The notes under the pieces are model-generated. The model did not search any database. It saw only the letters and a list, made by a program, of their open reading frames with translations, and was not told the origin of the DNA. From the NCBI GenBank assembly GCA_023229865.1, contig JALNYL010000006.1:5597-69596 (forward strand): a stretch of 64,000 nucleotides of DNA, given 5' to 3'. Source of the DNA: Minisyncoccota bacterium (GTDB lineage: Bacteria; Patescibacteriota; Minisyncoccia; Phycocordibacterales; UBA1550). Positions 2,346 through 19,614 of this stretch are shown one piece after another; position 1 is the stretch's first letter, and every line of letters starts with the position of its first letter. Both the position numbers and the translations under genes were made by a program.

Positions 2346-2409
2346 ATTGCTACTGGGATTTTATTTCTTTATTCTGTGCCCCTACCTTCGCTTGACCAGA
2401 ACTACCCCG

Positions 2410-2643
2410 TTACCCCAACGACCTCTCCACAATCTCAAACACATCCCGCGACAGCCCCTTGTGGTTGCGCAGCATTTCAGGCGCGGCACGCGCATGTGCC
2501 TGGCGCGTGGCTTCAAGCCTGCGCCAGCGGTCAAAGCAGCGTGCCAGGCGCGCCGCGACTTGGGGGTTGATGCCGTCGGGGTGATATGGGGTCAGCATCG
2601 CAATAGTTTTGGGCAACGACCGGTTTGTATCGGTTGCAGACAT
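2410..2643 (-). CDS. small hypothetical protein (77 aa) downstream of XRE regulator, GC-rich
   Basis: ATG-initiated ORF co-directional with HTH gene; no SD seen. Confidence 0.3.
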   Translation of the reverse strand: MSATDTNRSLPKTIAMLTPYHPDGINPQVAARLARCFDRWRRLEATRQAHARAAPEMLRNHKGLSRDVFEIVERSLG

Positions 2644-2745
2644 CTAGCCAGTGTAGTTCGAATATCCGCTTCGGCCGAGCATCAGACACTATCTGTCTGA
2701 TAAAGATACCGTAGTTTGCACCTTGGTAAGGTCGAGCGAGTCCCC

Positions 2746-3117
2746 CTATTTGCTTGCCAGTAGCGCAACCAAAATGCCCAGCCCGATCAATAACGCGGCC
2801 TTTGCAGCATCGTTATCGTCGGTTGGTTTCTCATTAGGAACCTGAACGCCTTTTCTTGCGAGTTGCTTCGCTAGGTTATCTGCTTCGGACAGGATGCTTT
2901 CGGGAGAATCCCCGAGTGCGTGAGCCAACGAGCGAAGATGTGAGACCGTCAAGGCGGTTTGGCCGGACTCAATGCGCGAGTATGCTGATTGGGTTAACCC
3001 AAGCGCTAGGGCTATCTCCCCCTGACTCTTCTTGCGAAGATCGCGGCGCTTTTGAATAACTTGCCCAATAAGCGCGTTATAGGGAAGAACAGCGGTTGGC
3101 ATTTTAGGGGTTGACAT
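2746..3117 (-). CDS. XRE-family (Cro/CI-type) HTH transcriptional regulator with C-terminal transmembrane tail
   Basis: SQGEIALALGLTQSAYSRIESGQ HTH motif; C-terminal hydrophobic AAKAALLIGLGILVALLASK. Confidence 0.8.
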   Translation of the reverse strand: MSTPKMPTAVLPYNALIGQVIQKRRDLRKKSQGEIALALGLTQSAYSRIESGQTALTVSHLRSLAHALGDSPESILSEADNLAKQLARKGVQVPNEKPTDDNDAAKAALLIGLGILVALLASK

Positions 3118-3623: not shown

Positions 3624-5444
3624 ATGAACGCACAAAAAAGTGTTTCAAAGGATTCTAAACGTGTCGGTATCTGGATTCGCGTCTCCACAGAAGACCAGGT
3701 GAGAGGGGAGAGCCCCGAGACGCACGAACGCCGTGCGCGCCTCTACGCAGAAGCCAAAGGCTGGGATGTGGTCGAGGTGTACCGCCTTGACGCTCTCTCG
3801 GGCAAGACCGTCAAGGAATACCCTGAAACAAAGCGCATGCTTGCCGACATCGCCAGCGAACACATCACCGGACTCATCTTCTCCAAGCTAGCCCGACTCG
3901 CTCGAAATACCAAAGAGCTTCTCGATTTCGCTGAGATATTCCGCGACTGCAATGCAGACCTCATTTCACTTGCAGAGTCGATAGATACCTCGACCCCCGC
4001 AGGACGTCTCTTCTACACCATGATCGCAGCTATGGCCCAGTGGGAGCGCGAGGAGATAGCGTCCCGTGTTGCTGCATCAGTCCCCATCCGCGCCAAGATG
4101 GGCAAGCCCTTGGGTGGTCAATCTCCGTTTGGGTATCAATGGAAGGAAGGCAAGCTCATTCCCGATGACGCCGAAGCACCCGTCCGCAAACTCATGTATG
4201 AGCTCTTCCGCGAGAATGAAAGAAAGAAGACCGTAGCGCGACTACTCAACGAACGCGGATATCGCACGCGGAACGGTTCTCTGTTCACCGATACGACCAT
4301 CACCCGTCTCCTTCGTGATCCCACCGCTAAAGGTGTCCGCCGTGCGAACTACACCGTCTCCAAAGACAGCAAGAAATCATGGGGCCTAAAACCTGAAAAT
4401 GAATGGGTGCTTCATGAGGTAGAAGCGATCATTTCCGAAGACCTCTGGAATGAGGTCAATGCAATTCTTGATGCTCAACAAAAAAAGGGAAAGCGTGTTG
4501 CGCGTCAGGTCATCCACCTGTTTGCAGGACTCACGTATTGTGGCTGCGGGCAAAAAATGTATGTGCCATCGAACACTCCAAAGTACGTTTGCTACGACTG
4601 CCGCAACAAGATTCCTGTCGTTGATCTAGAGGGAGTATTTCACGAGCAGATCAAAAACTTTTTCTTCTCTTCGGAGGAAATTGCCGAACATCTATGCAAG
4701 GCAAACGCAACTATTCACGAGAAAGAAGAACTGCTCCAGGTTCTTCTCAACGAACAGAAGAAGCTCACTGCCGAGGTGGACAAGTTGTACGACCTCTACC
4801 AAGGGGGAGCGATTGATAAGGCGGGATTCGGGGCGAAATACTACCCGCTTGCAGAACGAGGGCGTCAGCTTGATGATGAAGTTCCTCAGGCGCAGGCAGA
4901 GCTCGATGTACTGAAAATCTCGCAGCTTTCTCAGGAAGAGATCATCACCGGCGCACGCGATCTTTACTCTCGCTGGCCGGAACTCCCCCAGGAAGAGAAA
5001 CGTCGCATCGTAGAGGCCATCACCGACCGAATCGTCATCCATCCCGACGAAGTAGAGATCAACCTCTTCTATGCGCCGGGAACCTCTACACCATCAGCGG
5101 GAACCCCGTTCACCCCAGAATCCTCAGGGGGCTCATCTACACCCCCTGTAACCCCGTCTTTAAATGGTGGCAGGAAGGCAACGGAACTTCATAGACGCGT
5201 TGCCTTTTTACCATACGTCCGCGTGTGCCTCAAATCCCTGAGAAAGAAGGATTTTGACTTTGAGCCGCGTACCCTGGGCGAGCAAATCAAGCGGCGGCGT
5301 CTGGAACTCTGCCTGTCACAAAAGGAGGTAGGGGAGATGCTGGGTGTAAGCTCGTTTACTGTGCTGAATTGGGAAAAGGGGAAGACAATGCCAAACGAGG
5401 AGGCCATGCCGCGCATTGCATCCTTTTTAAGTGGTGGTGCATAA
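3624..5444 (+). CDS. large serine recombinase (resolvase/invertase catalytic domain + recombinase domain + zinc ribbon + coiled coil) with extra C-terminal XRE-type HTH
   Basis: [12 protein letters not shown]...[10 protein letters not shown] catalytic Ser region, [23 protein letters not shown]...CYDCRNK zinc ribbon; strong SD GGAGGA 5 nt upstream; C-term [31 protein letters not shown]. Confidence 0.9.
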
Positions 5445-5469: not shown

Positions 5470-5781
5470 CTAGAACTCCGGCAAATTGTCGAGATTGTCA
5501 GCGGCCTTCCCGTTATCAACAGTTTTTAAGTACTCCACGCCGTTTACTTTGATGATGTATATGGACTGCCCTTTGATCCACTTCCCCTCACTGCTTTTGG
5601 TGATAGTGACGAAGGTCGTTCCCTTTTTGATAGCGGCGACGATATCTGCGCGCGCGTAGTCGGTTGAAGCACCTATCGTCTCCCCGTTATCTGGGTGAAC
5701 CCTGAGTTTGTCTATGTGCGTATGCGCACTGTTGAACCTAACTGCTGATACACAATAATCTGCCCACTTAGCCATTCCCAC
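5470..5781 (-). CDS. DUF3892-family small protein
   Basis: MAKWADYCVSAVRFNSAHTHIDKLRVHPDNGE...GTTFVT pattern typical of DUF3892 (phage/MGE associated). Confidence 0.55.
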   Translation of the reverse strand: MGMAKWADYCVSAVRFNSAHTHIDKLRVHPDNGETIGASTDYARADIVAAIKKGTTFVTITKSSEGKWIKGQSIYIIKVNGVEYLKTVDNGKAADNLDNLPEF

Positions 5782-5838
5782 TCTCCCTTTGGAAAAATAT
5801 CAGCGATAGCGATTCAATTTTGATTCGGATTAAATATT

Positions 5839-7008
5839 TCATCTTCCAATGGTCGTAACTACTCCTACAGAAGGCGGGAAGTCACTACCTGATTGCTGTT
5901 TGGAAATAAGTAAAGAAACGAGCGAGAGAGTATGCATCGATCTGTTGGGGCAAGGCTCACTAGTCCCTGTTTTCAATCGAGGGATTACATACGATTCACC
6001 TTCGTAATTAATCTCCACATATGGTTTGCCGTAGGTCTCAGAATCAGATTTCTTGGAACGCGCAAAGAATAATGTTTCGTCCTTGCAGTTTTCGTTTCCA
6101 ATAGCTAGCACTTTGTTTTCTTCTGCAGCACGCAGAATTTCACCGAGATAATAAATTACTCCTTCGGGCGATCGTAAAATAATTCTCGTTGATTTCTCGG
6201 GAATGGATGTGCCTATGGAATTATCAACAACCTCCATCAACTTTGCGACTCCATCCTCATTGGCGCACGACAGAACATATTTGCCTTTACGTTTTGAAGC
6301 AAGCTGCCATTTCCCATTACCAACCTCTTTTAAAAGCATCCCAGCCTTTTGGATTTCAATAAGACTGTTCAGTTGGTCTGGATTAGCAGTACGCATTTCA
6401 ATCTGGGGTCCAATATTGTCTTCGCCGCCCCCCGACTCACTCAATTTGCATTCATGACCACCAATTATCTCTTTTACCTTCTTTTGGAAATCTGAAAATT
6501 GATTAGAGTTTGGATAATTCAGATATGAAGTTGTCTTGCCGTTCGCATTGATTTCTTCAATTTTTGAAACAATGAGGTAAAGGAGCATTTCTTTCGGCCA
6601 CCCTTGCTCCCAAAAGTAAGCAAGGGTTTCCGGCTTGATGGGCGCCAACATTCCTTGGATGAAATCCTTCGAAGTTAGCGGTGCAACTGTATAGACTGGT
6701 GACAGCGAGAAATTTGCTTTAGGTGTGAGTGAATATGCGCCGTTATATCCATTGCCAACCTTTCCGAAAGGCAGTACTAGGTCTCCTGACATTCCATAAG
6801 TTTGGGTCTCTTTCATGTCACTGAGGGTCGTGAAATACATAGGATACCGTTTGCTTGCGCGTACAATATTCAGCAAGAGCATTTCGTTCTGAGCTTTTTC
6901 AAGGGTCTGGTTGTACTCAGTAGCCCCTAAAGCAACCTGCTCTTTGGGGAGCGTTGCACAACCTGTAAGTGCAACGATACTAAGGGACAGCATTGATAGT
7001 TTTATCAT
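5839..7008 (-). CDS. lipoprotein of unknown function (ATG at 7008, SD GAGGA; translationally coupled 9 nt after nuclease stop)
   Basis: signal peptide + lipobox MIKLSMLSLSIVALTGC; track start at 7020 is GTG, ATG at 7008 preferred. Confidence 0.6.
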   Translation of the reverse strand: MIKLSMLSLSIVALTGCATLPKEQVALGATEYNQTLEKAQNEMLLLNIVRASKRYPMYFTTLSDMKETQTYGMSGDLVLPFGKVGNGYNGAYSLTPKANFSLSPVYTVAPLTSKDFIQGMLAPIKPETLAYFWEQGWPKEMLLYLIVSKIEEINANGKTTSYLNYPNSNQFSDFQKKVKEIIGGHECKLSESGGGEDNIGPQIEMRTANPDQLNSLIEIQKAGMLLKEVGNGKWQLASKRKGKYVLSCANEDGVAKLMEVVDNSIGTSIPEKSTRIILRSPEGVIYYLGEILRAAEENKVLAIGNENCKDETLFFARSKKSDSETYGKPYVEINYEGESYVIPRLKTGTSEPCPNRSMHTLSLVSLLISKQQSGSDFPPSVGVVTTIGR

Positions 7009-7016
7009 TTCAATCC

Positions 7017-8075
7017 TCACTCCCTTCTAATAGGCTTATCTACACATGTTGGTCTTGGGGCTCCTGCGAAATTTGAATTCAACTTGGTACTAAGCTCCCA
7101 GCTGTCATCGGAAGTACGACTGCTCTCGACCTGGTTTTCAATGTCATCGGGAAGTTCAGAAAGGAAATCGATTTCCGTACGCCGTTCAATTTCATCAACA
7201 GTCGTGACAAGCTTTGAAAGCTCTGTGCCTGGCTTTGTTTGTTGTGTAAATATGACTGCAAGTACATTGGGTTTCCCGTCGGTCTCTTTTACGATGATCT
7301 TGTAAAACGCGACGGGCAACTCGACACCAGAACAAAGACGGTTGAGCCACACAGGATCAAAGATGGGGCCAGCAGTTACCCATATATTACCGACTTGTTC
7401 CGCGTATGAAGCCTCAAGCATTTCCAGCCCTAGCCACGACTTTTGGTTAAGTGAGGGAAGTTGTGGGGTGATGTTCGACATGAAGTAGGTCTCATTCTGC
7501 GAATCACATCCATGCCGTGAGCCTATGTTATCGCTTGGAGCCATGTGCCCACGGTCGTATCCCGAGCTGTTGTAGCTATCATGAGTGGTGCGAATGAGGG
7601 TGCGATCATCAGTGAGGAATCGAGATAGCCGAGGGCAATCATGCCCTTGATCTGTACCAATCTGATATGCAGACCATAGAGGGTTCGCCTTTGTTTCTGA
7701 ATACCCGACAGCGTACGCCGCGTTTTTGATGTGCGATATTTGATCGCTCACTTTGGAATCATTGGGGAGGCCACCAAAGAACACACTCCGCTCAACCCCA
7801 GGGGGATCGCCGCTGAACAAGCGAACTCGTGATTTGTATACCCACCCAGTCCCCGAACCATTGAGGAGCCGAATCTTATGGTAGCCATTTTGCAGTTTGT
7901 CACTTACGGTAAGCAGATAGATTTGCTGACTGAGCTTCTCCGGATGGACTGACTCAAGGATTGTTGCATTGCGGTCGGGGGATGCGTAGATGTTAGCGCT
8001 ACGCTTGACCTCAACATAGTTTGCCCAGGCGCAGGCTGGGAATATACACATCAGGATAAGCAGTGCCCGTCGCAT
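7017..8075 (-). CDS. secreted DNA/RNA non-specific endonuclease (Serratia NucA/Endonuclease_NS family) with N-terminal signal peptide and extra N-terminal domain
   Basis: SGYDRGHMAPSDN active-site (DRGH) motif, downstream N..TPQ region; signal peptide MRRALLILMCIFPACAWA; SD AGGAG before ATG 8075 (track start 8081 is GTG). Confidence 0.85.
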   Translation of the reverse strand: MRRALLILMCIFPACAWANYVEVKRSANIYASPDRNATILESVHPEKLSQQIYLLTVSDKLQNGYHKIRLLNGSGTGWVYKSRVRLFSGDPPGVERSVFFGGLPNDSKVSDQISHIKNAAYAVGYSETKANPLWSAYQIGTDQGHDCPRLSRFLTDDRTLIRTTHDSYNSSGYDRGHMAPSDNIGSRHGCDSQNETYFMSNITPQLPSLNQKSWLGLEMLEASYAEQVGNIWVTAGPIFDPVWLNRLCSGVELPVAFYKIIVKETDGKPNVLAVIFTQQTKPGTELSKLVTTVDEIERRTEIDFLSELPDDIENQVESSRTSDDSWELSTKLNSNFAGAPRPTCVDKPIRRE

Positions 8076-8130
8076 AACCACTCCTTCTATCTATGCTCGA
8101 TATACAAAGTTGAGTGATGCCGTGCCTGAC

Positions 8131-8550
8131 CTAAATTGTTTTTTCTAAATCCAGTTTCATCTTTGCGCTTTTAATCTCTCGTTCAGCCTTTGAGAAATCT
8201 TCATGTTCTTGCTGAGCCGAACTTTTCCAGTTCAGGAAATCCCGGAATAGCTTGATTGATCCTTTGCTTCCACCAGACACAACCCCTGCTGTAATGAGGT
8301 AACCCACGAGTGTGTTTTTCTCCTGGCTGAAGATCACCGCCATGGCATCGAATTGGTACAGGTACACAATTACAAGAGATGTGATGATGACAATGGGCTC
8401 CTTGAAGCCCTTGTTCTTCATTTTATCCAAAACCAAACGTGACTCGAATATTGGGGACAGGGCGCGTTCGACGAAGAGCGAGAGCAAAACGATTGTCCCG
8501 AGTACCTCTAAGACAACATCTCCCTTGATTCCAAAAAGTAGCGGGTCCAT
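8131..8550 (-). CDS. small membrane protein, unknown function (downstream of rSAM maturase; possible export/immunity role)
   Basis: ATG with SD GGGAGA; three hydrophobic segments. Confidence 0.5.
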   Translation of the reverse strand: MDPLLFGIKGDVVLEVLGTIVLLSLFVERALSPIFESRLVLDKMKNKGFKEPIVIITSLVIVYLYQFDAMAVIFSQEKNTLVGYLITAGVVSGGSKGSIKLFRDFLNWKSSAQQEHEDFSKAEREIKSAKMKLDLEKTI

Positions 8551-8652
8551 TCAGTATCTCCCTGTCGTGTTTTAGATTCTTCACTTTACTACAGCGTTTT
8601 AGAGCCCGTAAACAAGCCCCTCAATATACTGTCAATGTAATGTGTTCCCGAA

Positions 8653-10029
8653 TTAGCGCCCATCTGATGAATTAATTAATGCAGCCTCGGCATCTGAAAT
8701 CAGAATCGCGCGGCCAATCTTGCCCACATATTTTTCTATGTTGAATCGCACAGCATCACAGGGAGTCAGCGACTGATCCATGAAAATTCTAGGGTGAGCA
8801 CATCCCCCCATACAAAGAGGCAAAACATTGCAACTCTTGCATCGCTCATTTTCAAACGGAGAATAATCTGCCCATTGCTTATCGATATTGGAAGCAGACG
8901 AGGGCAATGGTTTATAACCCTCTGAAATATGCCCTGACTGCTCAGTAACAGCCCCTACGCTATGCCAGCAGCGACTGATTGACCCATCTGGCCCGATGAC
9001 AATCATCCTGTGCGCAGAGGCTGAACATGCTGCGGATTTAGGAGTTAACTTCCGCGCCAACATTTGCATGCCGTTATCGCTTACTGATAGTGCAAGATTT
9101 TCAAGTGTCGCGTATTCGCTCCGCCCCAGGCTGCATCCATGACCACAAGGGCCATCAGAAGGATTCCGCTTGCCGTCTGAGTTGGTTGCATACCCAGCAT
9201 CTCCCTCGTAATCATAGACGTGGGACAACACAACGGTTGGCACAGAGTTGGCGCGAAGATCATCCAAAATATTTTCAACTTCGTGCGCATTCTTGTTCGT
9301 TACATTAATCCGCACTTGAATATCCAGGTGATCTTTGGATTCCAGAAGATTCTTGTATATCCTGGAAGGCTCACCGGTGCTTGTTCGCATCCCCCGCAAC
9401 CCAGTTTGCTCTTGAAGGGAGTCAAAGCATATCTGAACATTTCTCATGCCAAGCTTGTCCAGTTCCTTCGCGGTGTCTTGGTCGAGCAGTGCTCCATTGG
9501 TGACCATAGTAACGTCGAGTTTACCGCGAGCACTTCTGACAACCTTGCGGATATCCTCAGTCAATTTGATTATTTGCGCCTTACGCAATAATGGCTCTCC
9601 GCCAAACCAGGTAACCAAGAAGCGCCGCCAGCCAAACTGGATGCACGATTCAATGTACTGCAACAATTGCTCCTCCACCTCTGGGCGCATTATGGCACTC
9701 GTGCGATACGACGCTTGAAAGCAATATTCACACGAATAATTGCAGGCGAGTGTGGGAACAAGGGTCAGGTGGAGCGTGTCTCCTCCGCGCGAAGCAAGAA
9801 AGGTTTTCTTGATGAGCTCGATTTCGTCGTCTTTGTGAAGGAATCCCATGCGGCGCAATTGTCGCGGATCGATAGCCTTTTTTAGATCACCATCCCCACG
9901 AAGAATTTCTGCATTTTCTGACGAGAGAAGAGCGAAGGTTCCTGTGCGTGCGTTATATCCAATAACACCCTCATCTCGCTCAATGAAATAATTGTAGCGC
10001 GAACGAACATAGTCGAATCGCTTAGACAT
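8653..10029 (-). CDS. radical SAM / SPASM-domain peptide-modifying enzyme (anSME/ranthipeptide-sactipeptide maturase-like)
   Basis: CNYSCEYC (CxxxCxxC) cluster; C-terminal SPASM cysteines C...CWH and CKSCNVLPLCMGGCAH; N-terminal ~100-aa peptide-recognition-like extension. Confidence 0.85.
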   Translation of the reverse strand: MSKRFDYVRSRYNYFIERDEGVIGYNARTGTFALLSSENAEILRGDGDLKKAIDPRQLRRMGFLHKDDEIELIKKTFLASRGGDTLHLTLVPTLACNYSCEYCFQASYRTSAIMRPEVEEQLLQYIESCIQFGWRRFLVTWFGGEPLLRKAQIIKLTEDIRKVVRSARGKLDVTMVTNGALLDQDTAKELDKLGMRNVQICFDSLQEQTGLRGMRTSTGEPSRIYKNLLESKDHLDIQVRINVTNKNAHEVENILDDLRANSVPTVVLSHVYDYEGDAGYATNSDGKRNPSDGPCGHGCSLGRSEYATLENLALSVSDNGMQMLARKLTPKSAACSASAHRMIVIGPDGSISRCWHSVGAVTEQSGHISEGYKPLPSSASNIDKQWADYSPFENERCKSCNVLPLCMGGCAHPRIFMDQSLTPCDAVRFNIEKYVGKIGRAILISDAEAALINSSDGR

Positions 10030-10064
10030 GGATCGCCCCCGCTACCGTATTACTGACTTGCTGA

Positions 10065-10244
10065 TTACTTGACACTGCAACTGAGAACGTCGCAGCAGAT
10101 GGATACCAAACCGCCAGGACGCGGAATTTTGGTAGTTATTCTTGAACTGAATGAACCAGTGTTAATCGCGGGGATTTTTACGACCATTTCTTTGGTCCCC
10201 GTAGCAAGTAATTTTATTGCTCCTGTCTTTGCGGTAGTAGCCAT
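10065..10244 (-). CDS. candidate RiPP precursor peptide, 59 aa: MATTAKTGAIKLLATGTKEMVVKIPAINTGSFSSRITTKIPRPGGLVSICCDVLSCSVK (not in ORF track, <60 aa)
   Basis: ATG preceded by GAGAGGAG SD at 6-nt spacing; 35 nt upstream of and co-oriented with rSAM/SPASM gene; Gly-Gly motif followed by 14-aa Cys-rich C-terminal core (3 Cys). Confidence 0.55.
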   Translation of the reverse strand: MATTAKTGAIKLLATGTKEMVVKIPAINTGSFSSRITTKIPRPGGLVSICCDVLSCSVK

Positions 10245-10592
10245 GCTGCACTCCTCTCATAAGTTGGAAAAACAATAAAGCCTTCGTACCCATTGTGGGC
10301 AGCGTGAATGGTAGGTCAAAAACAAATTTTGCGGCGCGGCTTGTCGGACTAGGCGAAGAACTAGACCAACCTGCGTCGAGGTCTATAACTTGGTCTATAT
10401 ATTCATAGCGCTGTGCAGGACACTGTGGGGGGGCTGTGTTCCGTACAACCTGGCCCCGGCAATTATTTGCCCATTGCCGGAAAAGTAATGACGCCCGACA
10501 AAGTGATTGATGGAAGAGGCGTATTGGTTGGACCCCCTCGTAACGATGGTTGAAACTGGGTTAGGCTTCCGCCTCAACTAGGAAATACGTGG

Positions 10593-11075
10593 CTAATTCT
10601 CAATGCAACCATTACTAGCTGCGAAACCACATACTCCATCAAGTAGAAGTCCCCCTGCCTGTTTTTCTCGAGTTTTTATATCGAACATCATCAAACCACG
10701 ATGAGTTGACCAGAGATACCAGATTTTCGGGCTCCCATTCTTCTCAATGACTAGTGCTGGGCGTTCTCCCCGCAATCGAATTCTTTGGATTACCTTATAT
10801 ATCGATCCATTAAATTCCCATTTGTTTTGAAGAATCGAATTTCTTGGGACAGCAAATTCAAATACTTTTGAGACAACGCAATGAAATTCATTTTCTGCAT
10901 CACAAAATTTTGCGTCATATCCAACGTCTCCAACAATGACAGAGTTTGTTGTTCTGTCAATGGCGAAGCCGGGACCCTTTGATGGTATACGGATATATTC
11001 CGCAATTTGTTCAGCAAAACAGCACGTGGTAATAGTCCACGTAAAGAAGATAATTGGTATTGTTTTTACTTGCAT
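10593..11075 (-). CDS. exported hypothetical protein; candidate immunity protein for upstream Rhs-CT toxin (overlaps toxin stop by ~10 nt)
   Basis: N-terminal hydrophobic signal-like segment; position immediately downstream of toxin cassette; track start 11081 is TTG, ATG at 11075. Confidence 0.4.
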   Translation of the reverse strand: MQVKTIPIIFFTWTITTCCFAEQIAEYIRIPSKGPGFAIDRTTNSVIVGDVGYDAKFCDAENEFHCVVSKVFEFAVPRNSILQNKWEFNGSIYKVIQRIRLRGERPALVIEKNGSPKIWYLWSTHRGLMMFDIKTREKQAGGLLLDGVCGFAASNGCIEN

Positions 11076-11683
11076 GAGCAATCCCCTGAAAGGAATTTTC
11101 TAGCCCAAGCATCGGCGTCATTTTCGCCAGGTGCCTCTTTGCCAACAAGCGCGCGAGAATTATCCAAGCTATGATTTTCATTCATGAGGTGGCGGAACTC
11201 GTGCGTAAAGATTAGTGAAGGTCCGGGATCATGGGATGTGAGGTTGAAAAAGTCCCAATTAAATCGCGTTTCCTGGGTCGAATACCATGTGTCAGCAAAA
11301 CCAGTTCTAGCTCGATGAAATATATCATCTGCCTTTGGGTCAACGTAAACTTTCCAGTTATCAAATTTTGATTGGAGCGCTGCGCGATTCTTCTTGCATG
11401 TTGTATTTATCTGCGCTTGCATCAGACTGCCAAGATGCCACAAAAACGCCTCGCGCTTTCTTAATTCCGCTTCTGCGGCATCGCTAGATGGCTGCCCACG
11501 TCGTATAACATCATACAACCCATATGGGTCTGAATTGACTAACGGGTTGCTCCTTACATAGGCATACGTATTAACGCCACCTTCTAGTCCGACAGGATCG
11601 GATTGGATATATCTCGCAAGCGCATTCTCCTCATAACAAGCAAGCGCAAGAAATAGCACCACAACGTTTCTGAATCTGATCAT
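11066..11683 (-). CDS. orphan Rhs/YD-repeat C-terminal toxin module: signal peptide + Rhs core terminal junction + ~150-aa toxin domain with HExxH (putative zinc metallopeptidase toxin)
   Basis: ARYIQSDPVGLEGGVNTYAYVRSNPLVNSDPYGL matches RHS-core end motif (DPxGL...NxYxYxxNPxxxxDPxGL); toxin region contains THEFRHL; SD GGGAG before ATG 11683 (MIRFRNVVVLFLALACYEENALA). Confidence 0.7.
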   Translation of the reverse strand: MIRFRNVVVLFLALACYEENALARYIQSDPVGLEGGVNTYAYVRSNPLVNSDPYGLYDVIRRGQPSSDAAEAELRKREAFLWHLGSLMQAQINTTCKKNRAALQSKFDNWKVYVDPKADDIFHRARTGFADTWYSTQETRFNWDFFNLTSHDPGPSLIFTHEFRHLMNENHSLDNSRALVGKEAPGENDADAWARKFLSGDCSCK

Positions 11684-11693
11684 TGCCATCTCC

Positions 11694-12671
11694 CTATTGA
11701 GCCAATCTCGCACGCTCCACGACTTGCTTGTACTGTGCCTTGTAGACCTCCGTTGGCATTCTCCAACCGAGCGCTTCTGCCTTGTCGTACCAAAGTCGAC
11801 TGTTACGATCCAAGAAAGCGTAATTCGACCGCTCTTCCAGCGGAATCAAGTCTGGTCTGGGATATTTGTTGATGAAACGGTCTTTGATCAACCTCGCGTA
11901 GGATGCGCCTTTGTGAAGCATGGCATTAACTGCTTTTGGCGAATACTCCAGCACCATATCAGAAGCCTCAATGGCCTTTTCGTATTGGTGCTTGTGCATG
12001 TAATGCTCGATCAGCGTATCTGTCATTAAAGCAACAGTTTCTTTTTTGCTTAGGGGGCGGAGATAGACGCCATTTGCGATGGCTTCGTCAGTCATGGGCA
12101 TTTGCTGCCTAAGCCACACATCTCGTGCCGTGTTTGCCCCGCTGGTCGCTTCGAGATTAATCCAGCCCTCATTGTTGGCTTTGTACTTCACGAATATGTG
12201 TTCGGGCGCAGTAGCGGCAGTCACTTCGAGGCCAAGCCGTTGCCCAAGGATGATGAAGAGGAAGGGCATGGAGACGCAATTGCCTTTTCTGGACTCCAAA
12301 TAGCTGGGCAGCAATTTATGGCTTATGTCTTCCCCATAAGGATCTGCCAAGTCGTACTGGTAGGGGCGCTGTCCATTCCATGGGTTGGCGGTATAAAGAT
12401 ACGTTCTTAAAACCTGTAGTTTTTCTGGGCTGGATGCATTGAATAGAAGCCCCATTTGGATGTTTGCCACCATCGAATCAATTTTTTTGAGGTTGGCCAT
12501 AATATCAATACTTGGGTCGATCATTTTGTCGATGGTCAGTTTTGCTTTGCCAAGATCAATCTGGTTTTCCGGCAGTCTTAGCATTGCTTGAATTGGACTG
12601 AGATCGTTGGCGAACGCAGCACTGCTTGGGACGGCCATAATCAGCAACAGAATCAGAAAAATACACCGCAT
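11694..12671 (-). CDS. secreted transglutaminase-like (papain-fold Cys-His-Asp) superfamily protein
   Basis: signal peptide MRCIFLILLLIMAVPSSAAFA; RKGNCVSMPFLFIILGQRLGLEV ... PEHIFVKY ... WINLEAT motifs resembling transglutaminase-like core; track start 12827 is TTG. Confidence 0.5.
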   Translation of the reverse strand: MRCIFLILLLIMAVPSSAAFANDLSPIQAMLRLPENQIDLGKAKLTIDKMIDPSIDIMANLKKIDSMVANIQMGLLFNASSPEKLQVLRTYLYTANPWNGQRPYQYDLADPYGEDISHKLLPSYLESRKGNCVSMPFLFIILGQRLGLEVTAATAPEHIFVKYKANNEGWINLEATSGANTARDVWLRQQMPMTDEAIANGVYLRPLSKKETVALMTDTLIEHYMHKHQYEKAIEASDMVLEYSPKAVNAMLHKGASYARLIKDRFINKYPRPDLIPLEERSNYAFLDRNSRLWYDKAEALGWRMPTEVYKAQYKQVVERARLAQ

Positions 12672-12844
12672 GCCTTGCCTGTCCAAAATGCAAACCAGAA
12701 GAACCCTACAGCAAGAACTGTTTTTCGACAATATGCCATTGGGCGCATTAAGGGGAAGCTTTCTCTCGGAGGCCATCGCAGGGATTGAAGCTGGTAAATG
12801 GAGATTTAATGTCTCCACGAGGTGCAACCAGATGTGCCCATGCT

Positions 12845-13263: not shown

Positions 13264-15993
13264 TTACTGCTTCTCAGCTTTTGAGAGCGACCGCGCAATT
13301 ACCTGCGCTACCGCGCTACGTCGTTCGGCGATGTCAGAAGGGGAGAGTGCCTGACTCGTCACCTTGACCTTGTACCCACGCACGGTACTTTCTGTCGTCG
13401 TTGGCGTCGTTGAAACAACTTGGTCGAGGTGTTCGATCAAATCCTCTGGGCTGAAATACCGCACCTTGTCTCGCACTGCTTCATCCAGGTTCGCGGGAAT
13501 GAACCGTGCAAGCGATTTCAAGTGGCGCGCATTCGTGCTGACAACCAATACCTCTTCGTATCCAGCTGAAAGACACTTCTCAACGTTCTGGAGCTCCCAG
13601 TCTCGTCCCGTGGTCACGGATATTTCCACGGCGATCTTGCGTTCTCCCTGCGAGAGGTGAACATCCACCCGTCCCGCACCATCAAGGATGGGTTCTTCGA
13701 TGGATGCCTTGAATGCGCGTTCTTCTGCAAGCTGCTTTACGAGTTGCGCAAGGTACTTGTGCTGCTTCCCACCACCCCCTTGTTCCTTCACCTCATATTT
13801 CGGGCTGGGGGTAGTGGTACGGAATACACGCGGCGCGGGTAGCTCAGGGTAGGGGGAAGAGCCTGCGCCGAGGTCTTCGTGTACAGGCTCCCCCTGGGGC
13901 GCTGGTGCAATCCCTTTCGGTGCCACCATCTCCTTCTTCTCAATCCGCCTGGCTACTGGTGGGACGATCTCAATCTGCGGAATCCGTGCCTCCACGCCAT
14001 ACACTACGCGATTCCTCTCGATGAGCTCTGCATACTGGATATCGTCAAGCACTGGCTCCCGTTCTACCACCCCGAGAGGAATGGAAACGGAAAGCGCTCT
14101 GGCCGTGAAGTTCTTCACATAGCAGGCGAACTCCGTATGGTTCCCGTATTTCTTTTGCTGCAATAGGAAATTAGCATCAGTACGGAACTCTGCATCAAGT
14201 GAGTTTGCATCCTTACTACTTACGCCACCGGCGAATTTAATGGAGGTACTAGCAAGGACACTTGCGCGAAGCGCTGGGCTCAGTTGGTCGAGGTTCTGGT
14301 GACTAAAGACCAGGCCAATCTTGTATTTCCGCGTCTGGTTCACCATGCGGTCGATATTCTCGTCAAAATAGTCCTCAGCCTCGTCGATATATGCAAAGGT
14401 GGGGGTTCGCTCGTGTGCGGGCAATATCGCGCGTTGTATGGCCGCCTGCGCGATCAGGGACACGATGAATCGGCCAAATATTGAAGAACCTTCGTGCCCC
14501 AAGAAATCCTTGGCCGTATTTACTAAAATGATCTTGCCCTCCTGGGTCAGCTTGAATAGGTCAACCTTGTTCTTGGGGTGGCTGAGCATTCGTTCGAGGG
14601 TCGTGTTACTGAGTACGCCCCAGAGTCGTGCCGTGATCTGTTTTTTGTTCTCGGCGAACTGCCGATCAAAAAACTGCGTCGCAAAGAATGTGTGGGCAGT
14701 ACCTGTGAGCTTTTCCATGTAGGGGCGGTACTTCTCTCCGTTCATCATGAGCTCAAGGAGTGTATGAATGGTGGCATTAGGGATTTCCATCATGAGGCGG
14801 GCAAGGTAGCGGAATATCACCCCCTGCCTTTGGGTGAGCTCTGCGCCAAGGAGTGCCCCGAAGAAGTACTCGTAGGTCTCGACTGTTGCGTTGAGAATCA
14901 TTTCTCTGTCTTGCGCTGAAAGCGTACCCATCCGCGCCCGGTCGAAGTCGAACATATTGAGTCCAACAGGATGCTCTACATCAGTCGGGTCGATGAGGAC
15001 AAACCGATCCGCAAGACTGTTTCCCTCACTTGGGTCAAAGAGCTTCAGGTGTGCAATGGTGCGGATCATGTCTCCCTGGCTATCCATCACGATGATCGAC
15101 CTCCCATCCTCCTGTGCCTTCACGAGGTCATGATGAATGAGGAACTGGAGTAGTTGTGTTTTGCCGTGCCCTGATCCCGCAACGATATGCGTGTGTTCAA
15201 ATCGCGCCGGGAAGGGGATAGCAAAGGGAAGTGTGTAGTAGAAAAAAGAGCGAAGCGGTGTTCCCTGAAGATACCCGTCTATGAGGTACTCAGGTGCGGT
15301 GCTCTTGTTGTCGCCCGGCATGATGATCTTCTGCGCCGTACCGTGCCGCCCGCCCGGCGGAACCCCCGACATGAGCCCTACGTTTCCTTCAAGTCTTTCC
15401 CGGAGGGGATCGAAGAGATGCGCATTCACCACGTCAGCATCGTAGAACGTGAGGATGAGCCGGTCGAGTACTTCGGGCAGATTATCGCAAAGGTCCCCTA
15501 TGTGCGCCTCGGGAAGGGTAACGGCGTTGTCAGAAGCAACTCCGTTTGCTCCGATGTCGGTAAAAGCCGAGAGCGGAAAATATTCGAGCATCCCCGAGAA
15601 CAGCCATACCAGCTTATCCCGCCAGATGACGGTCAGTCGTTCGTGGTCGTGGAGGTAATGCAGGTGCCGTTTCCAAATTGCACGAAGTTGAATTCCTTCC
15701 TCAATCGTGAGTTTGGGGATTGTGGAGCGCGGGGGAAGTTCAATAATGAGCCCATCGAAGGACAGGAGACTCCTCACGGTATCGTAGAGCGCATTCCCGA
15801 GAGGAGTCGAGGGGGTGACCCCGCGCCGTTCGCAGACCTCAAAGATGATTTCAAGAATGAAGTCACCGATCTTATCTTCATCTGAAAACGGCGCGCAAGC
15901 CTGAGCATCAACTACCTGCTCATAGAGGGTAGTCATGTCTTTGATCTCGCGGCTACGCGCCGAACCACGAAACCAGTTCTTCCAGTTCGACAT
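13264..15993 (-). CDS. large FtsK/HerA-superfamily P-loop ATPase, TraG/TraD/VirD4 coupling-protein-like core (no obvious TM helices) with ~270-aa N-terminal and ~200-aa C-terminal extra domains
   Basis: Walker A AGSGHGKTQLL, DSQGD after P-loop, Walker B AYIDEAEDYF, FSHQNLDQL; translationally coupled to upstream small gene. Confidence 0.65.
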   Translation of the reverse strand: MSNWKNWFRGSARSREIKDMTTLYEQVVDAQACAPFSDEDKIGDFILEIIFEVCERRGVTPSTPLGNALYDTVRSLLSFDGLIIELPPRSTIPKLTIEEGIQLRAIWKRHLHYLHDHERLTVIWRDKLVWLFSGMLEYFPLSAFTDIGANGVASDNAVTLPEAHIGDLCDNLPEVLDRLILTFYDADVVNAHLFDPLRERLEGNVGLMSGVPPGGRHGTAQKIIMPGDNKSTAPEYLIDGYLQGTPLRSFFYYTLPFAIPFPARFEHTHIVAGSGHGKTQLLQFLIHHDLVKAQEDGRSIIVMDSQGDMIRTIAHLKLFDPSEGNSLADRFVLIDPTDVEHPVGLNMFDFDRARMGTLSAQDREMILNATVETYEYFFGALLGAELTQRQGVIFRYLARLMMEIPNATIHTLLELMMNGEKYRPYMEKLTGTAHTFFATQFFDRQFAENKKQITARLWGVLSNTTLERMLSHPKNKVDLFKLTQEGKIILVNTAKDFLGHEGSSIFGRFIVSLIAQAAIQRAILPAHERTPTFAYIDEAEDYFDENIDRMVNQTRKYKIGLVFSHQNLDQLSPALRASVLASTSIKFAGGVSSKDANSLDAEFRTDANFLLQQKKYGNHTEFACYVKNFTARALSVSIPLGVVEREPVLDDIQYAELIERNRVVYGVEARIPQIEIVPPVARRIEKKEMVAPKGIAPAPQGEPVHEDLGAGSSPYPELPAPRVFRTTTPSPKYEVKEQGGGGKQHKYLAQLVKQLAEERAFKASIEEPILDGAGRVDVHLSQGERKIAVEISVTTGRDWELQNVEKCLSAGYEEVLVVSTNARHLKSLARFIPANLDEAVRDKVRYFSPEDLIEHLDQVVSTTPTTTESTVRGYKVKVTSQALSPSDIAERRSAVAQVIARSLSKAEKQ

Positions 15994-16002
15994 GGGGACG
16001 CG

Positions 16003-16386
16003 CTAGTATTCGAGAGCTTCCTCGCCTCCAAACTGGGATGCTGCCGTGAGTACAGCCTTGAAGGTTTTGCAGGCTTCCTTGATCTGATCTTCTACGGCGA
16101 GCATTTCGACAATGTCTTTGCACTCGATCTGCTTACCCTTCGAGAGGTCATTCACCGAAAGGGAGATATTGAGAGCCTTGAGAGCGAAACGGCTTGCTGC
16201 ACCAAGGAGGCCGCTGCCAGGATCAATAACCTTGTCCCGCTCGTAGAGCATGGTTTCGCCAAGTTTGTATTTCTTGATGTGTTCTTGTTCTTCGTCGGAT
16301 AGCTCGGCACGTACATCAAGGATGAATGAGACTTTGCCCATCCCCATCATTCCGGCTTTTTGATCCCTGCGCAGCAATACTTTCAT
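16003..16386 (-). CDS. hypothetical protein (127 aa), first gene of the ATPase operon
   Basis: ATG with SD AGGAGA; stop 9 nt before the ATPase start. Confidence 0.5.
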   Translation of the reverse strand: MKVLLRRDQKAGMMGMGKVSFILDVRAELSDEEQEHIKKYKLGETMLYERDKVIDPGSGLLGAASRFALKALNISLSVNDLSKGKQIECKDIVEMLAVEDQIKEACKTFKAVLTAASQFGGEEALEY

Positions 16387-16622
16387 GGAGTTTCTCCTGT
16401 AAGGTTAGTTGAGAACTGCACAACATATGCGTTTCCTCCTAACCCAGGAAGGTCTCCATCAAGAGATGCTTCGGGTGACTCCACCTGCATCCGGTAATCG
16501 GTGTGGCGGTATTGGTATTTGTGGAGCGCTCACGAGGAGAACTCCGCCCTGCATTATGCGCTTGCTTCTTAGGTCCACTCAAGAGGAAGTCAGGGATTCA
16601 AAAATATGCGTAGAAAATGAAA

Positions 16623-16653
16623 CAGGGTTCTCGTCGTAATGACGAGAACCCTG
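16623..16653 (-). terminator. perfect 13-bp stem / 5-nt loop hairpin (CAGGGTTCTCGTC-GTAAT-GACGAGAACCCTG); T-rich tract follows on minus strand
   Basis: seen in sequence; lies in ~1-kb non-coding stretch between the two ATPase operons. Confidence 0.4.
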
Positions 16654-17359
16654 CCTATTCCGAAATGACCTAGTCATACATCGAGCGCCATGCCCAGCCT
16701 CCCGTCGGCTCACGAACTTCTGTTCGTCGTCGCCGGTCTTTCCCTGATCGCCGATTACAACATGGCATGTTGAAATTGTCGCATCTGCAGATACGTGCTT
16801 CTGCTGCGATGTCCCCAGGTGTTTTTTTCGTGTCCATAACTATCTCCTTATCCGCTCTCGCGGGTTAGATTTAGAAACCGAAAGGAACTGAATTCATGAG
16901 GGTCGCAGATCGGATTTAGTGCCATCTCTTGCAAAAGATTTGCGGAAATGCTTTACTAATCCAGTCCAGCATTACGACCATCGCTTTACTACGCTTTGAA
17001 GCAGGGAGCCTCCTTTCTTGGCTCATCAGTAGGTTGGACACTGGGACCTGTTAGCGCAGGTTCCACCAAAGCCCGCCAAAACATCGGCGGGTTTTTCTTT
17101 GCATATTCAAACTGTTCCATAAATTTCTTTCGTTTCCGATGGCAAAGAAAATGCCCGCAATAATCGCAATTTTTAAAATTCGCAATTGTGGCGGGCATTA
17201 TCGCGGCCTCAAATGGCCTTCGATCTACTCCGCTTACTTCAACCGGTGCTGCTCATCTGCGTATGTTGCATCCTGTAATTGATTGCCCCGCTTCTGCGGG
17301 TGAATGTGCTGATCGAATATTAGCCAACTTCCTGCAAACATACAACCCATGCATGGGTA

Positions 17360-18520
17360 TTAATTCCTCACCGTCGTCGCACTAAACGGCTTACTCGGTG
17401 CGCCGTCGATCATGAGCTTGAGATATATGTCATGGTTCGGAATGTTCACCAAGTCCTCAGGTGAAAACACCGGCTCGAATTCCCGTGCAAGCGTCCGCGC
17501 ATCCTCTGCTCCTACGCGAAAGGCAATGAGCGTACCGACATTGCCCAGGACTGCATGCATCACCTCTCCTTCAAGTTGGTGAAGGTGCTGATTGGCAAGC
17601 ACGAGCCCAAGTTTGAATTTGCGAAGTTCCGACACAGTGTTCGCCACAGAAAGCGTCGTGAAGTTCTGGAATTCATCGAGGTGAAGATAAAACGGCCGAC
17701 GTGAATGTTCAGGTAGTTCGCTTCTGCTGAAGGCAGCAAGGTTGAGTGTGGTTACCAAGAGCGCCCCCAAGAGATTTGCGCTGTCGTCTCCCAATCGCCC
17801 CTTGGCGAGATTCACGATGAGGATCTTCCCTGAGTCCATGATGCGGCGAAAGCTGAGATCAATTGGTGGATTCGTAAGGATGCGGAAAAGCCTTGGGTCA
17901 GCAAGGAACGCGCCGATCTTGTTCTGGATAGGGGAGATCATCTCCTGGCGGTAGCGAGGGTTGTAGTCTTTGAACTCGTGTTCCCAAAATTCGCGCACCT
18001 GCACGTTGGAAATATTTTTCACTACGTTGTGTCGATACGCAGTGTCGCTAAACATGCGCAAAATGTCGGGGAGCGTCGCATCGCCGTACTCAATCAGAGC
18101 GTAGAGCGTGTTCCTGAGCACATGCTCCATGCGCACACCCCAAGCATCATCAAAGAGTTTCTTGAGCGCCTCCATGAGTCCTGAGACGGCAAGTGGCACC
18201 TTGTCCTTCCGCACCTGTCTGAGGGGGTTGTAGCCATACGGCTGATCGATATCAGCGGCATCCAGGTAGACGAGGTCGTCAGATCGCTCCTGGGGAATCC
18301 TGGCTATGAGACGCTCCGCCATATCGCCGTGCGGATCAATGACACACACTCCGTGCCCGTGTGCAATGTCCTGCTCTGCCAATGTCTCCATGAGCGTCGT
18401 CTTGCCGGTGCCGGTTTTTCCGATGACGTACAGGTGAAACAAGCGATCATCACTCTTGATGCCGAACCGCACCTTCTTTCTTCCGTTGGTCTCCGCAAAA
18501 TAGCTGATGTTGTTCTTCAT
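17360..18520 (-). CDS. HerA/DUF87/TrwB-like P-loop ATPase (386 aa)
   Basis: Walker A VIGKTGTGKTTL followed by VIDPHGD; Walker B YLHLDEFQNF. Confidence 0.65.
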   Translation of the reverse strand: MKNNISYFAETNGRKKVRFGIKSDDRLFHLYVIGKTGTGKTTLMETLAEQDIAHGHGVCVIDPHGDMAERLIARIPQERSDDLVYLDAADIDQPYGYNPLRQVRKDKVPLAVSGLMEALKKLFDDAWGVRMEHVLRNTLYALIEYGDATLPDILRMFSDTAYRHNVVKNISNVQVREFWEHEFKDYNPRYRQEMISPIQNKIGAFLADPRLFRILTNPPIDLSFRRIMDSGKILIVNLAKGRLGDDSANLLGALLVTTLNLAAFSRSELPEHSRRPFYLHLDEFQNFTTLSVANTVSELRKFKLGLVLANQHLHQLEGEVMHAVLGNVGTLIAFRVGAEDARTLAREFEPVFSPEDLVNIPNHDIYLKLMIDGAPSKPFSATTVRN

Positions 18521-18657
18521 GCAGAGAGCCTACCCAGCCTTGCGCAATATCACACGGCGCGGATACGTGCCGTCTTGGCACATTCTCCCGTCGTGAGATT
18601 TTGTTTCGTATGGTGAACTATATAGGTCGGCTTGTTCTTTATCGAAAGGAAACCGAC

Positions 18658-19224
18658 ATGACCATGAAACGATTATCAAACCAAGAGCTACTCACCATGC
18701 TTATCGGCGAAGGGAAAGCTAAGCAGTTTTGTCGTACCGAACTCGTATCGCTTGTATTTGCAGAAGAGGGGAGCGAGGACTATGTACAAGAACTCGGTGT
18801 AGCACGCGAGCTCGTCAAGCGCTCCCTTGAAGAAACGCTTTGCAGGGGGAATGCTCTTTTGTCTCCCCAGATTGTTGCCGACTATCTCAAGGTCATCTTG
18901 AATGGCCTCGGACATGAAGTGTTTGTAGCACTCTTTCTGGATGCTCAGCATCGCCTCATTGCCGCTGAAGAGCTCTTTCGGGGAACGCTCACACAAACAT
19001 CGGTGTATCCACGCGAGGTGGTGAAACGGGCGCTCTATCACAATGCTGCAGCCGTGATCTTTGCTCACAACCACCCCTCGGGAGTTTCCGAACCAAGCAC
19101 TTCGGACGTGATGCTCACTGGGGCACTAAAGCAGGCCCTCTCGCTTGTGGACGTAAAAGCGCTCGATCATCTTGTGGTAGCAGGGAGTGACGTAGTGAGC
19201 CTTGCAGAAAGAGGGCAAGTGTGA
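18658..19224 (+). CDS. radC: RadC-like JAB/MPN domain protein (UPF0758)
   Basis: JAMM motif HNHPSGVSEPSTSD; helix-hairpin-helix-like N-terminus; SD AAGGAAA before ATG 18658 (track start 18601 is TTG). Confidence 0.85.
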   Translation: MTMKRLSNQELLTMLIGEGKAKQFCRTELVSLVFAEEGSEDYVQELGVARELVKRSLEETLCRGNALLSPQIVADYLKVILNGLGHEVFVALFLDAQHRLIAAEELFRGTLTQTSVYPREVVKRALYHNAAAVIFAHNHPSGVSEPSTSDVMLTGALKQALSLVDVKALDHLVVAGSDVVSLAERGQV

Positions 19225-19283: not shown

Positions 19284-19299
19284 GTATAATCTGCGAATG
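19284..19299 (+). promoter_or_regulatory. perfect TATAAT (19284-19289) 7 nt upstream of the IHF-like ATG with no SD: probable leaderless transcript
   Basis: seen in sequence. Confidence 0.35.
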
Positions 19300-19614
19300 A
19301 CTCGCTCTGACCTCATCGCCCGCTTAGCCGAACTGCACCCTCGATTGCTTGCCAAGGATGCAGAACTCGCGGTCAAAGTAATCATTGATTCCATCTCTGA
19401 CTCACTAGCACATGGTGGTCGGGCAGAGATTCGTGGCTTCGGTAGTTTTGGGTTGAATTACCGACCGCCGCGCAAAGGTCGGAATCCGAAAACAGGGGCA
19501 GGTGTAAATATTCCCGCGAAGTATTCGCCGCATTTCCGGGCAGGGAAGGAATTGAGGGAGCGGGTGAATCCTTTAGACGATCAGACTAAATCCCCAGTGA
19601 ATGGGGAAAAGTAA
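19297..19614 (+). CDS. integration host factor beta / HU-family DNA-binding protein
   Basis: [15 protein letters not shown]...[47 protein letters not shown] is the classic IHF-beta/HU arm signature. Confidence 0.85.

Follow-up and report, generated by a model that had tools for sequence, protein, structure and literature searches.

A two-ATPase cassette with a predicted nuclease-fold domain as a candidate mobilisation module of serine-recombinase islands

A 64,000-nt window of contig JALNYL010000006.1 (assembly GCA_023229865.1; coordinates below are window positions unless another locus is named) contains a cassette encoding two soluble P-loop ATPases, ATPase1 and ATPase2, and a 127-aa protein between them. 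The cassette is interpreted here, with slightly better than even confidence, as the DNA-processing or mobilisation module of an integrative mobilisable element (IME). Homologues of ATPase2 include coupling-protein-type ATPases with two N-terminal transmembrane (TM) helices, whose genes adjoin those of MOB_C relaxases. The long form of ATPase2 that is found in the window lacks the TM helices, and in it a PD-(D/E)xK domain occupies the place of the relaxase. A first-pass annotation of the same DNA had proposed a DNA-transfer module like those of actinomycete integrative and conjugative elements (AICEs) or, alternatively, HerA-type defence. That earlier interpretation is partly supported as a whole.

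The relatives of ATPase2 adopt two architectures. The long form contains a C-terminal domain, as in the window, and the short form (∼700 aa) ends after the ATPase core. The TM-anchored short forms share 41–51% identity with the ATPase core of the window protein. In all six short-form loci whose downstream flank is covered (L006, from a Sulfitobacter plasmid, and L089, L093, L094, L096 and L097), a PF13814 (Replic_Relax) gene is located directly beside the pair of small and ATPase2 genes; at L089, the order is ATPase1, small gene, short ATPase2 and Replic_Relax. In contrast, none of 86 long-form loci contains a PF13814 gene within 10 kb. Two N-terminal TM helices (residues ∼5–45) are observed in three of the four short forms checked (L096, 6001–8250; L093, 9232–11307; L006, 8452–10551), and no such helices are found in the 76 long forms scanned or in the window protein. 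PF13814 represents the MOB_C relaxase superfamily (PMC5357655) and has been assigned to the PD-(D/E)xK fold (PMC3424549). Thus, the C-terminal domain of the window ATPase2 occupies the very position at which close relatives encode a relaxase of restriction fold. Given TM-anchored short-form relatives beside relaxase genes, the DNA-transfer role suggested by the first-pass annotation is the reading with the best support. The fourth short form checked, at L097, lacks TM helices yet has an adjacent MOB_C gene and therefore may be an evolutionary intermediate. A plasmid collection yielded only two moderately related matches, both of which are short forms.

Architecture of the cassette proteins

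ATPase2 (909 aa; 13264–15993, minus strand) consists of an N-terminal domain (residues ∼1–250), an ATPase core (∼255–670), a linker (∼671–735) and a C-terminal domain (736–909). The core is a strongly conserved P-loop domain resembling that of type IV coupling proteins (T4CPs), and its Walker A and Walker B residues are invariant in the family alignment. The linker is of low complexity. The N-terminal domain of ∼250 residues is poorly conserved, and no Pfam match was obtained for the ten N-terminal domains scanned. The motifs given for this protein in the first-pass annotation (GSGHGKT, DSQGD, IDEAEDYF, SHQNLDQL and GAGRVDVHLSQGERKIAVEISV) are all read in the translation. Homologues of ATPase2, counted as cluster representatives at 50% identity, number 11,876 at E ≤ 1e-3 and 1,836 at E ≤ 1e-30. 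The window protein scores 18.5 bits against the T4CP profile, just under the cut-off, and most homologues have a precomputed PF10412 match. PDB sequence searches with ATPase2 and with its C-terminal domain were uninformative, and the similarity of the window ATPases to solved T4CPs is mostly limited to the Walker A region.

The C-terminal domain (residues 736–909; 13267–13788, minus strand), which had been described as vaguely PD-(D/E)xK-like from the sequence, is confidently predicted to adopt a PD-(D/E)xK nuclease fold. An AlphaFold2 model of residues 735–909, built with 38 diverse sequences, has a predicted local distance difference test (pLDDT) score of 91 and displays an αβββαβ topology. 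In a Foldseek search of the PDB, the top matches are nearly all PD-(D/E)xK proteins (R2 RLE, R.BspD6I, EcoT38I, Can2, Bax1, Hjc and McrC), with E-values of 5e-4 to 5e-2 and a probability of ∼1. Seven residues of the domain are invariant (H745, E766, D777, T795, E800, K806 and G873), and E790 is nearly so (≥90%). The 38 C-terminal domain sequences match no Pfam family and give only scattered weak matches to restriction endonucleases. No direct homology to Replic_Relax is detectable from the sequence: PF13814 does not match any of the 38 sequences at E ≤ 1, and an hhalign comparison of the domain with two Replic_Relax proteins gave a probability of 0.1%.

ATPase1 (386 aa; 17360–18520, minus strand) is a soluble TrwB/VirD4-like P-loop ATPase. 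Both ATPase genes are present in the open reading frame (ORF) list on the same strand, and the ATPase1 motifs GKTGTGKTT, VIDPHGD and HLDEFQNF are likewise read in the translation. Pfam and PDB searches confirmed that both proteins belong to the FtsK/HerA superfamily, with T4CPs as the nearest named relatives. ATPase1 scores above the T4CP cut-offs of PF10412 (45.4 bits, cut-off 20.5) and PF02534 (24.4 bits, cut-off 20.1), and its score against PF01935 (DUF87/HerA) is 42.3 bits. In PDB searches by sequence and by profile, TrwB ranks first (E 2e-7), followed by DotL (2e-4) and then HerA (0.024). ATPase1 is a paralogue of the ATPase2 core (26–27% identity over ∼350 aa). It also matches positions 395–767 of phrog_5156, an 824-position phage family with no annotated function (E 1e-55), which indicates that prophage-like sequences encode related ATPases extended by an additional N-terminal half.

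The third cassette gene, an ORF located between those of the two ATPases, encodes a small protein (127 aa; 16003–16386, minus strand). It is always found directly upstream of ATPase2, from which it is separated by 9 nt in the window. It is highly conserved, with 919 homologues at 69–100% identity. The small protein has no Pfam match, and its model (pLDDT 76) has no significant fold match in the PDB or BFVD. The earlier claim that TM helices are missing holds for the cassette proteins. The best 19-residue Kyte–Doolittle windows of ATPase1, the small protein and ATPase2 score 1.2–1.4 against a threshold of 1.6; those of ATPase1 (1.40) and ATPase2 (1.37) lie within the ATPase core, and neither protein has an N-terminal TM anchor.

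Only the unit formed by ATPase1, the 127-aa protein and ATPase2 is near-universal in the islands that carry it. The cassette is found in ∼85 loci from Beta- and Gammaproteobacteria, Acidobacteria, Patescibacteria-labelled metagenome-assembled genomes (MAGs) and others. A scan of metagenome contigs with the ATPase2 alignment added 80 loci, and a scan of genome contigs with a single protein gave three. Each ATPase has thousands of homologues, and those of ATPase1 and ATPase2 are found together on contigs. The gene order around the cassette was examined in nine distinct loci (L001, L003, L004 and L008–L012; L002 duplicates L001), which derive from Burkholderiales, Gallionellaceae, Gammaproteobacteria, Acidobacteria and unbinned contigs. 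The eight loci with a full cassette share a common order of a divergent RadC gene, ATPase1 (∼395 aa), the ∼127-aa gene and ATPase2 (∼900–920 aa), with gaps of 30–83 nt between the cassette genes. In two of the neighbourhood loci, an ArdC-like gene is inserted between RadC and ATPase1. The small gene adjoins ATPase2 in 69 loci, ∼390 nt upstream. ATPase1 usually adjoins the small gene but is often displaced by inserted cargo or located downstream, which identifies the junction between ATPase1 and the small gene as a recurrent insertion point.

De novo clustering of 1,398 neighbouring ORFs recovered the ATPases in 82 loci, the small protein in 69, RadC in 22, a large serine recombinase in 16, a helix-turn-helix (HTH) ORF in 13 and a comM fragment in eight. 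No conventional relaxase, Rep, primase, partition, type IV secretion system (T4SS) or capsid gene recurs across the islands in this clustering, and the island genes other than the cassette and the serine recombinase vary almost completely. Among 2.9 million viral contigs of IMG/VR, only three distant relatives were found, and phage matches by tblastn reach only 24–25% identity. An origin from a phage or satellite was rejected, as the one IMG/VR relative inspected, L093, proved to be an island that carries a serine recombinase, MOB_C relaxase and restriction–modification (R-M) genes but no structural genes. No description of the cassette was found in the literature searched. The source contig is labelled Candidatus Pacebacteria, of the candidate phyla radiation (CPR), and its cassette proteins are 75–88% identical to copies in MAGs of Gallionellaceae and other Pseudomonadota, which points to either a recent cross-phylum transfer or mis-binning.

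The upstream inverted repeat and the local spacer

The 137-nt intergenic region between RadC and ATPase1 contains a nested inverted repeat, CACGACG..GAGAA.GTGCC-N5-GGCAC..CGCCGTG (18553–18595, minus strand), which was aligned across 24 loci. RNAalifold predicted no structure from the upstream alignment, and the repeat was therefore tested with an explicit structure. The repeat positions pair in 85% of the alignment cells, compared to 17–50% when the partners are slid. The alignment contains 19 double-sided changes, a number reached by none of 500 shuffles. A covariance model of the repeat was used to search 1.48 Mb. Each element has essentially a single high-scoring match, situated upstream of ATPase1, and three marginal matches lie elsewhere (E 0.002–0.05); the window match spans 18548–18598 (54.6 bits). 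Between the repeat and the gene, a −10-like TAnnnT box (TAGGCT in the window; 18527–18532, minus strand) is located 6 nt upstream of the ATPase1 ATG (18518–18520). T69, A70 and T74 of this box are invariant in the 24-locus alignment, and no Shine–Dalgarno sequence is observed. The proximity of the box to the ATG and the lack of a Shine–Dalgarno sequence suggest that the ATPase1 transcript is leaderless or nearly so, which would place the repeat where an operator or activator site is expected. The nested repeat is the best candidate cis-site of the cassette and could be an origin of transfer (oriT) or else an operator of the cassette promoter. These data do not tell the two functions apart, as a hairpin and a binding site for a dimeric protein would both be expected to show symmetric changes.

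On the far side of the repeat, a divergent RadC-like gene encodes a JAB-domain protein of 188 aa (18658–19224, plus strand). Its ORF is listed from a TTG at 18601, but the ATG at 18658 is the most likely start because it is preceded by an AAAGGA ribosome-binding site 7 nt upstream and yields 188 aa, the length seen in all homologues. Directly beyond RadC, the window contains an IHF-beta-like gene (19297–19614; 131 bits against an NCBIfam cut-off of 115), which was found by tblastn in no other locus examined. Its product could serve in recombination or relaxosome bending.

In the window, ATPase1 and the small gene are separated by a spacer that the first-pass annotation had treated as a possible transfer origin. 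Blastn comparison with L001, L003, L004 and L008–L010 shows that homology to the window breaks off at 17372 and restarts at 16388. The intervening ∼980 bp (16389–17371) match nothing in 97 related loci and nothing in the remainder of the window. Based on these alignments, the spacer is identified as an insertion private to this copy that splits the operon between ATPase1 and the small gene. Because the entire segment is missing from all homologous elements, its palindromes were rejected as an oriT. Their conservation across related elements, one of the checks named in the first-pass annotation, is thus not observed; the ATPases, for their part, do not fall into clades with known non-transfer functions.

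The structures reported within the spacer are real. The perfect 13-bp stem (16623–16653) is part of an intrinsic-terminator-like hairpin (16620–16656, minus strand) that has a 16-pair stem followed by a T-run and that folds far better than dinucleotide shuffles (DNA minimum free energy −16.2 kcal/mol, z = −7.8). This hairpin directly follows a 55-aa Cys-rich ORF (CRCDNFNMPCCN; 16670–16837, minus strand) with an AAGGAG ribosome-binding site. The spacer, described earlier as ∼1 kb without convincing genes, is thus not simply a non-coding stretch. The imperfect palindrome, reported as ∼50 bp, spans ∼56 bp (17147–17202) with 28-nt arms of 79% complementarity (z = −3.4 relative to dinucleotide shuffles) and overlaps the start of the reported 69-aa ORF with a CxxC..CH pattern (16989–17198), which also exists. 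The 55-aa and 69-aa ORFs have no homologue in the related loci. A promoter-like site is located in the spacer downstream of the hairpin. The spacer plays no part in the proposed mobilisation and brings its own ORF, terminator and promoter-like site. The only match to a known RNA family in the region is a chance-level match to P9 (E 0.86).

Mobilisation and competing explanations

Nicking, DNA hand-over and dependence on a helper element are deduced from the homology, architecture and context of the cassette, and the proposed sequence of events would run as follows. The serine recombinase of the element (3624–5444) would excise it as a circle, and the nuclease domain of ATPase2 would then cut or nick the circle at a specific site. 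One or both hexameric ATPases, together with the small protein, would unwind or translocate the DNA and pass it on to a mating channel that a co-resident conjugative element provides. The candidate cis-site, either oriT or operator, would be the nested repeat in the RadC–ATPase1 intergenic region, and the divergent RadC and ArdC genes would act as leading-region genes in establishment or anti-restriction. ArdC and RadC read away from the cassette. This arrangement resembles that of conjugative elements, in which leading-region genes adjoin oriT and relaxosome genes are located on the lagging side (PMC11541004).

Among known systems, the cassette is best filed with the MOB_C-type coupling-protein/relaxase mobilisation modules, as a variant. 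CloDF13 (MOB_C1) encodes its own coupling protein, MobB (PMC7431656), and streptococcal IMEs of class 8 combine a serine integrase, a MobC relaxase and a VirD4 coupling protein (PMC5357655). Like these modules, the cassette pairs a VirD4/TrwB-type ATPase with a PD-(D/E)xK-fold DNA-cutting function, and as in class 8 it is associated with a serine integrase and a non-self-transmissible element. The exact MOB_C1-type arrangement with a bona fide PF13814 gene occurs in the short-form relatives, not in the window. The window nuclease is instead fused to the ATPase and has no sequence similarity to PF13814, although its modelled fold and conserved acidic residues resemble those of a MOB_C relaxase. 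Unlike in MOB_C1 modules, ATPase2 has lost the membrane anchor and gained the ∼250-aa soluble N-terminal domain, and the cassette also includes a further soluble ATPase, paralogous to the ATPase2 core, and an obligatory 127-aa protein whose fold is novel. The window ATPases share the P-loop nucleotide-binding domain of T4CPs such as TrwB of R388, VirD4, TraD and DotL, and ATPase1 passes both T4CP profiles; they differ from T4CPs in having no TM domain and no cognate T4SS in view nearby, and a T4CP-type association with a relaxase gene is confined to the short forms.

Several observations weigh against a mobilisation role. The main difficulty is that neither window ATPase has a membrane anchor. 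Deletion of the TM domain abolishes the function of MobB, TrwB and PcfC (PMC7431656), and classical coupling to a T4SS is therefore not assured for the window proteins. Docking through the soluble N-terminal domain, ATPase1 or the small protein is speculation. Of the ∼40 window ORFs scanned, none was recognised as a T4SS gene, in a scan that was not exhaustive. The link between the C-terminal domain and PF13814 is positional and at the fold level only. In addition, the canonical lysine of the (D/E)xK motif is replaced in the C-terminal domain (E-I-S), and its role would have to be taken over by the invariant K806 of the following helix. The nic site or oriT stands at the level of a candidate. 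The nested repeat travels with displaced ATPase1 rather than with ATPase2, lies just upstream of the −10-like box and was not detected in elements without ATPase1 or in a more distant clade; given this distribution, it may be only an operator. Finally, both ATPases match a defence profile, mad8 of PADLOC, and conflict systems are abundant in the cargo surrounding the cassette.

This last point is the core of one alternative, in which the cassette is anti-phage or anti-plasmid defence carried as island cargo, with the hexameric ATPases sensing or threading foreign DNA and the fused nuclease degrading it. The mad8 component of the MADS system is matched by both ATPases (E 6.8e-15 and 1.7e-18), and HerA profiles of PADLOC are matched weakly by ATPase1 only (E 4e-6 or worse). 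The combination of ATPase and nuclease is typical of defence systems and follows the logic of HerA-type ATPases, which belong to the same superfamily and whose DUF87 profile ATPase1 also matches. Moreover, neighbouring cargo includes R-M genes, ubiquitin-like Bil-type genes, SMC-like ATPases, a pVip-like radical-SAM protein and an RHS fragment. However, the match to mad8 is confined to the ATPase core and covers part of the profile. Under the MADS model, MAD6, MAD7 and MAD8 are all required, and no other Mad match was found among ten proteins tested, including the small protein and six further neighbouring ORFs; no other PADLOC v2 system matched. A Sir2, DUF4297 or NurA partner, as in HerA systems, was not found in Pfam scans of the neighbours, and HerA ranks below T4CPs in the ATPase1 profile search of the PDB. 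The cassette stays constant while the surrounding defence genes vary, which is the reverse of the expectation for cargo. In addition, the short-form homologues are canonical TM-anchored coupling proteins beside MOB_C relaxases, and the neighbouring ArdC and RadC genes are conjugation-associated. Defence, the alternative offered by the first-pass annotation, is thus considered improbable.

An equally improbable alternative assigns the cassette to replication or maintenance of the excised circle, with the nuclease as a rolling-circle-type nickase, the ATPases as a helicase/translocase or partition motor, and transfer achieved by other means. Soluble ATPases need no membrane for such a role, the islands have no conserved Rep, primase or partition gene, and a single conserved inverted repeat adjoins the cassette. 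No FtsK/HerA/T4CP-type ATPase is known to serve as a replicative helicase of a bacterial element, and conjugation is the setting of both the nearest characterised relatives and the short-form loci. The leading-region-like arrangement of ArdC and RadC further points to entry into a new cell (PMC11541004). Relaxases of integrative and conjugative elements and IMEs can also initiate replication, a point discussed for MobT (PMC5357655), and replication is compatible with mobilisation rather than strictly exclusive of it because both begin with nicking. By far the least probable explanation is the AICE-like model, in which a single FtsK-like membrane-pore translocase pumps double-stranded DNA into a neighbouring cell and recognises the spacer palindromes. 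The cassette resembles AICE TraB in its hexameric pumping-ATPase (FtsK/HerA P-loop) superfamily and in its location on an integrative element with a serine recombinase. Nevertheless, the model is contradicted at every defining feature that could be tested here: there is no FtsK_SpoIIIE Pfam match at E ≤ 0.01, no TM segment or pore domain and no winged HTH/clt system, the C-terminus being a nuclease fold, and the spacer with its palindromes is missing from all homologous elements. By their source labels, the hosts belong to Gram-negative lineages or the CPR and not to mycelial actinomycetes; the one actinobacterial label is that of an Acidimicrobiales MAG.

If the mobilisation reading is correct, the relaxase function has been replaced by, and fused as, a different PD-(D/E)xK domain on a coupling-type ATPase without an anchor. 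The system would then comprise a soluble coupling-protein-like motor with a built-in restriction-fold 'relaxase', working alongside another motor and a small protein whose fold is novel, and would be carried by very widespread integrative elements that reach CPR/Patescibacteria-labelled genomes. A motor that works without a membrane anchor may dock onto the channels of unrelated helpers or use a transfer route outside current models of conjugation. The stronger, joint proposal that the long-form cassette is a previously undescribed DNA-transfer initiator of a cross-phylum, comM-targeting element family is put forward only tentatively and is rather unlikely to hold in all its parts. For most genomic islands, no means of transfer is known. 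Thousands of environmental contigs from different phyla contain the cassette, and mobility typing based on relaxases does not detect it because no MOB profile matches its nuclease domain. As a mobilisation module, it would make a large class of serine-recombinase islands classifiable as mobilisable. The cargo of such islands comprises restriction, ubiquitin-like, SMC-like and toxin genes, and many of the islands interrupt the competence gene comM. The small protein and the N- and C-terminal domains of ATPase2, all without family assignment, are concrete targets for biochemistry.

Integrase, integration site and cargo

The large serine recombinase (3624–5444, plus strand) contains a C-terminal HTH_3 domain and is the integrase of the element family. 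Its homologues in related loci bear out the earlier placement of a serine recombinase in the same element as the ATPases. In ∼15 loci, only an HTH_3-coding segment, homologous to residues 523–603 of the window recombinase, is seen, and it abuts a 3′ fragment of comM, which encodes an Mg_chelatase-like competence helicase (L001, 21332–21841; L009, 18948–19529; L012, 17803–18297; and ∼12 more loci). The junction lies directly before the CPCG(Y/F)LGH motif, and comM is thus a recurrent target. At L071, a bounded 12.6-kb island has the catalytic part of the recombinase (1520–3034; 504 aa with its own stop codon) at one end and the HTH part (13882–14118) at the opposite end, beside valS. The contents of this island are limited to two serine recombinases, regulators, a BsoBI R-M system, some short uncharacterised ORFs and the small and ATPase2 genes. 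An intact recombinase–HTH fusion ORF is present in the window, L008/L023 and L086. No comM fragment is found in the window; with the fusion ORF intact, the ends of the element are not definable here.

The recombinase gene appears to span the attachment site. Split integrase genes are a feature of archaeal SSV-type integrases and are unusual among bacterial serine recombinases. If this arrangement is correct, the recombinase gene itself would be split by integration and re-joined by excision.

Pairs of an ImmA/IrrE-type peptidase and an HTH regulator recur in the islands. Between the recombinase and ATPase2, the window carries cargo resembling conflict or toxin genes (5470–12827). This segment encodes a DUF3892 protein (5470–5781), an Endonuclease_NS protein (7017–8081), a radical-SAM protein with pVip-like PADLOC matches (8653–10029; E 1e-15), an RHS-core fragment (11066–11713) and a SirB1/transglutaminase-like protein (11694–12827). 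A 733-aa SMC_N-like ATPase is encoded at 144–2345, in a segment of 37–39% GC compared to ∼50% GC for the island. L001 encodes an 813-aa SMC_N/AAA_15/AAA_23 protein on the RadC side of the cassette, ∼7 kb past RadC. From ∼24 kb onward, the window contains tRNA genes and an aminoacyl-tRNA synthetase gene.

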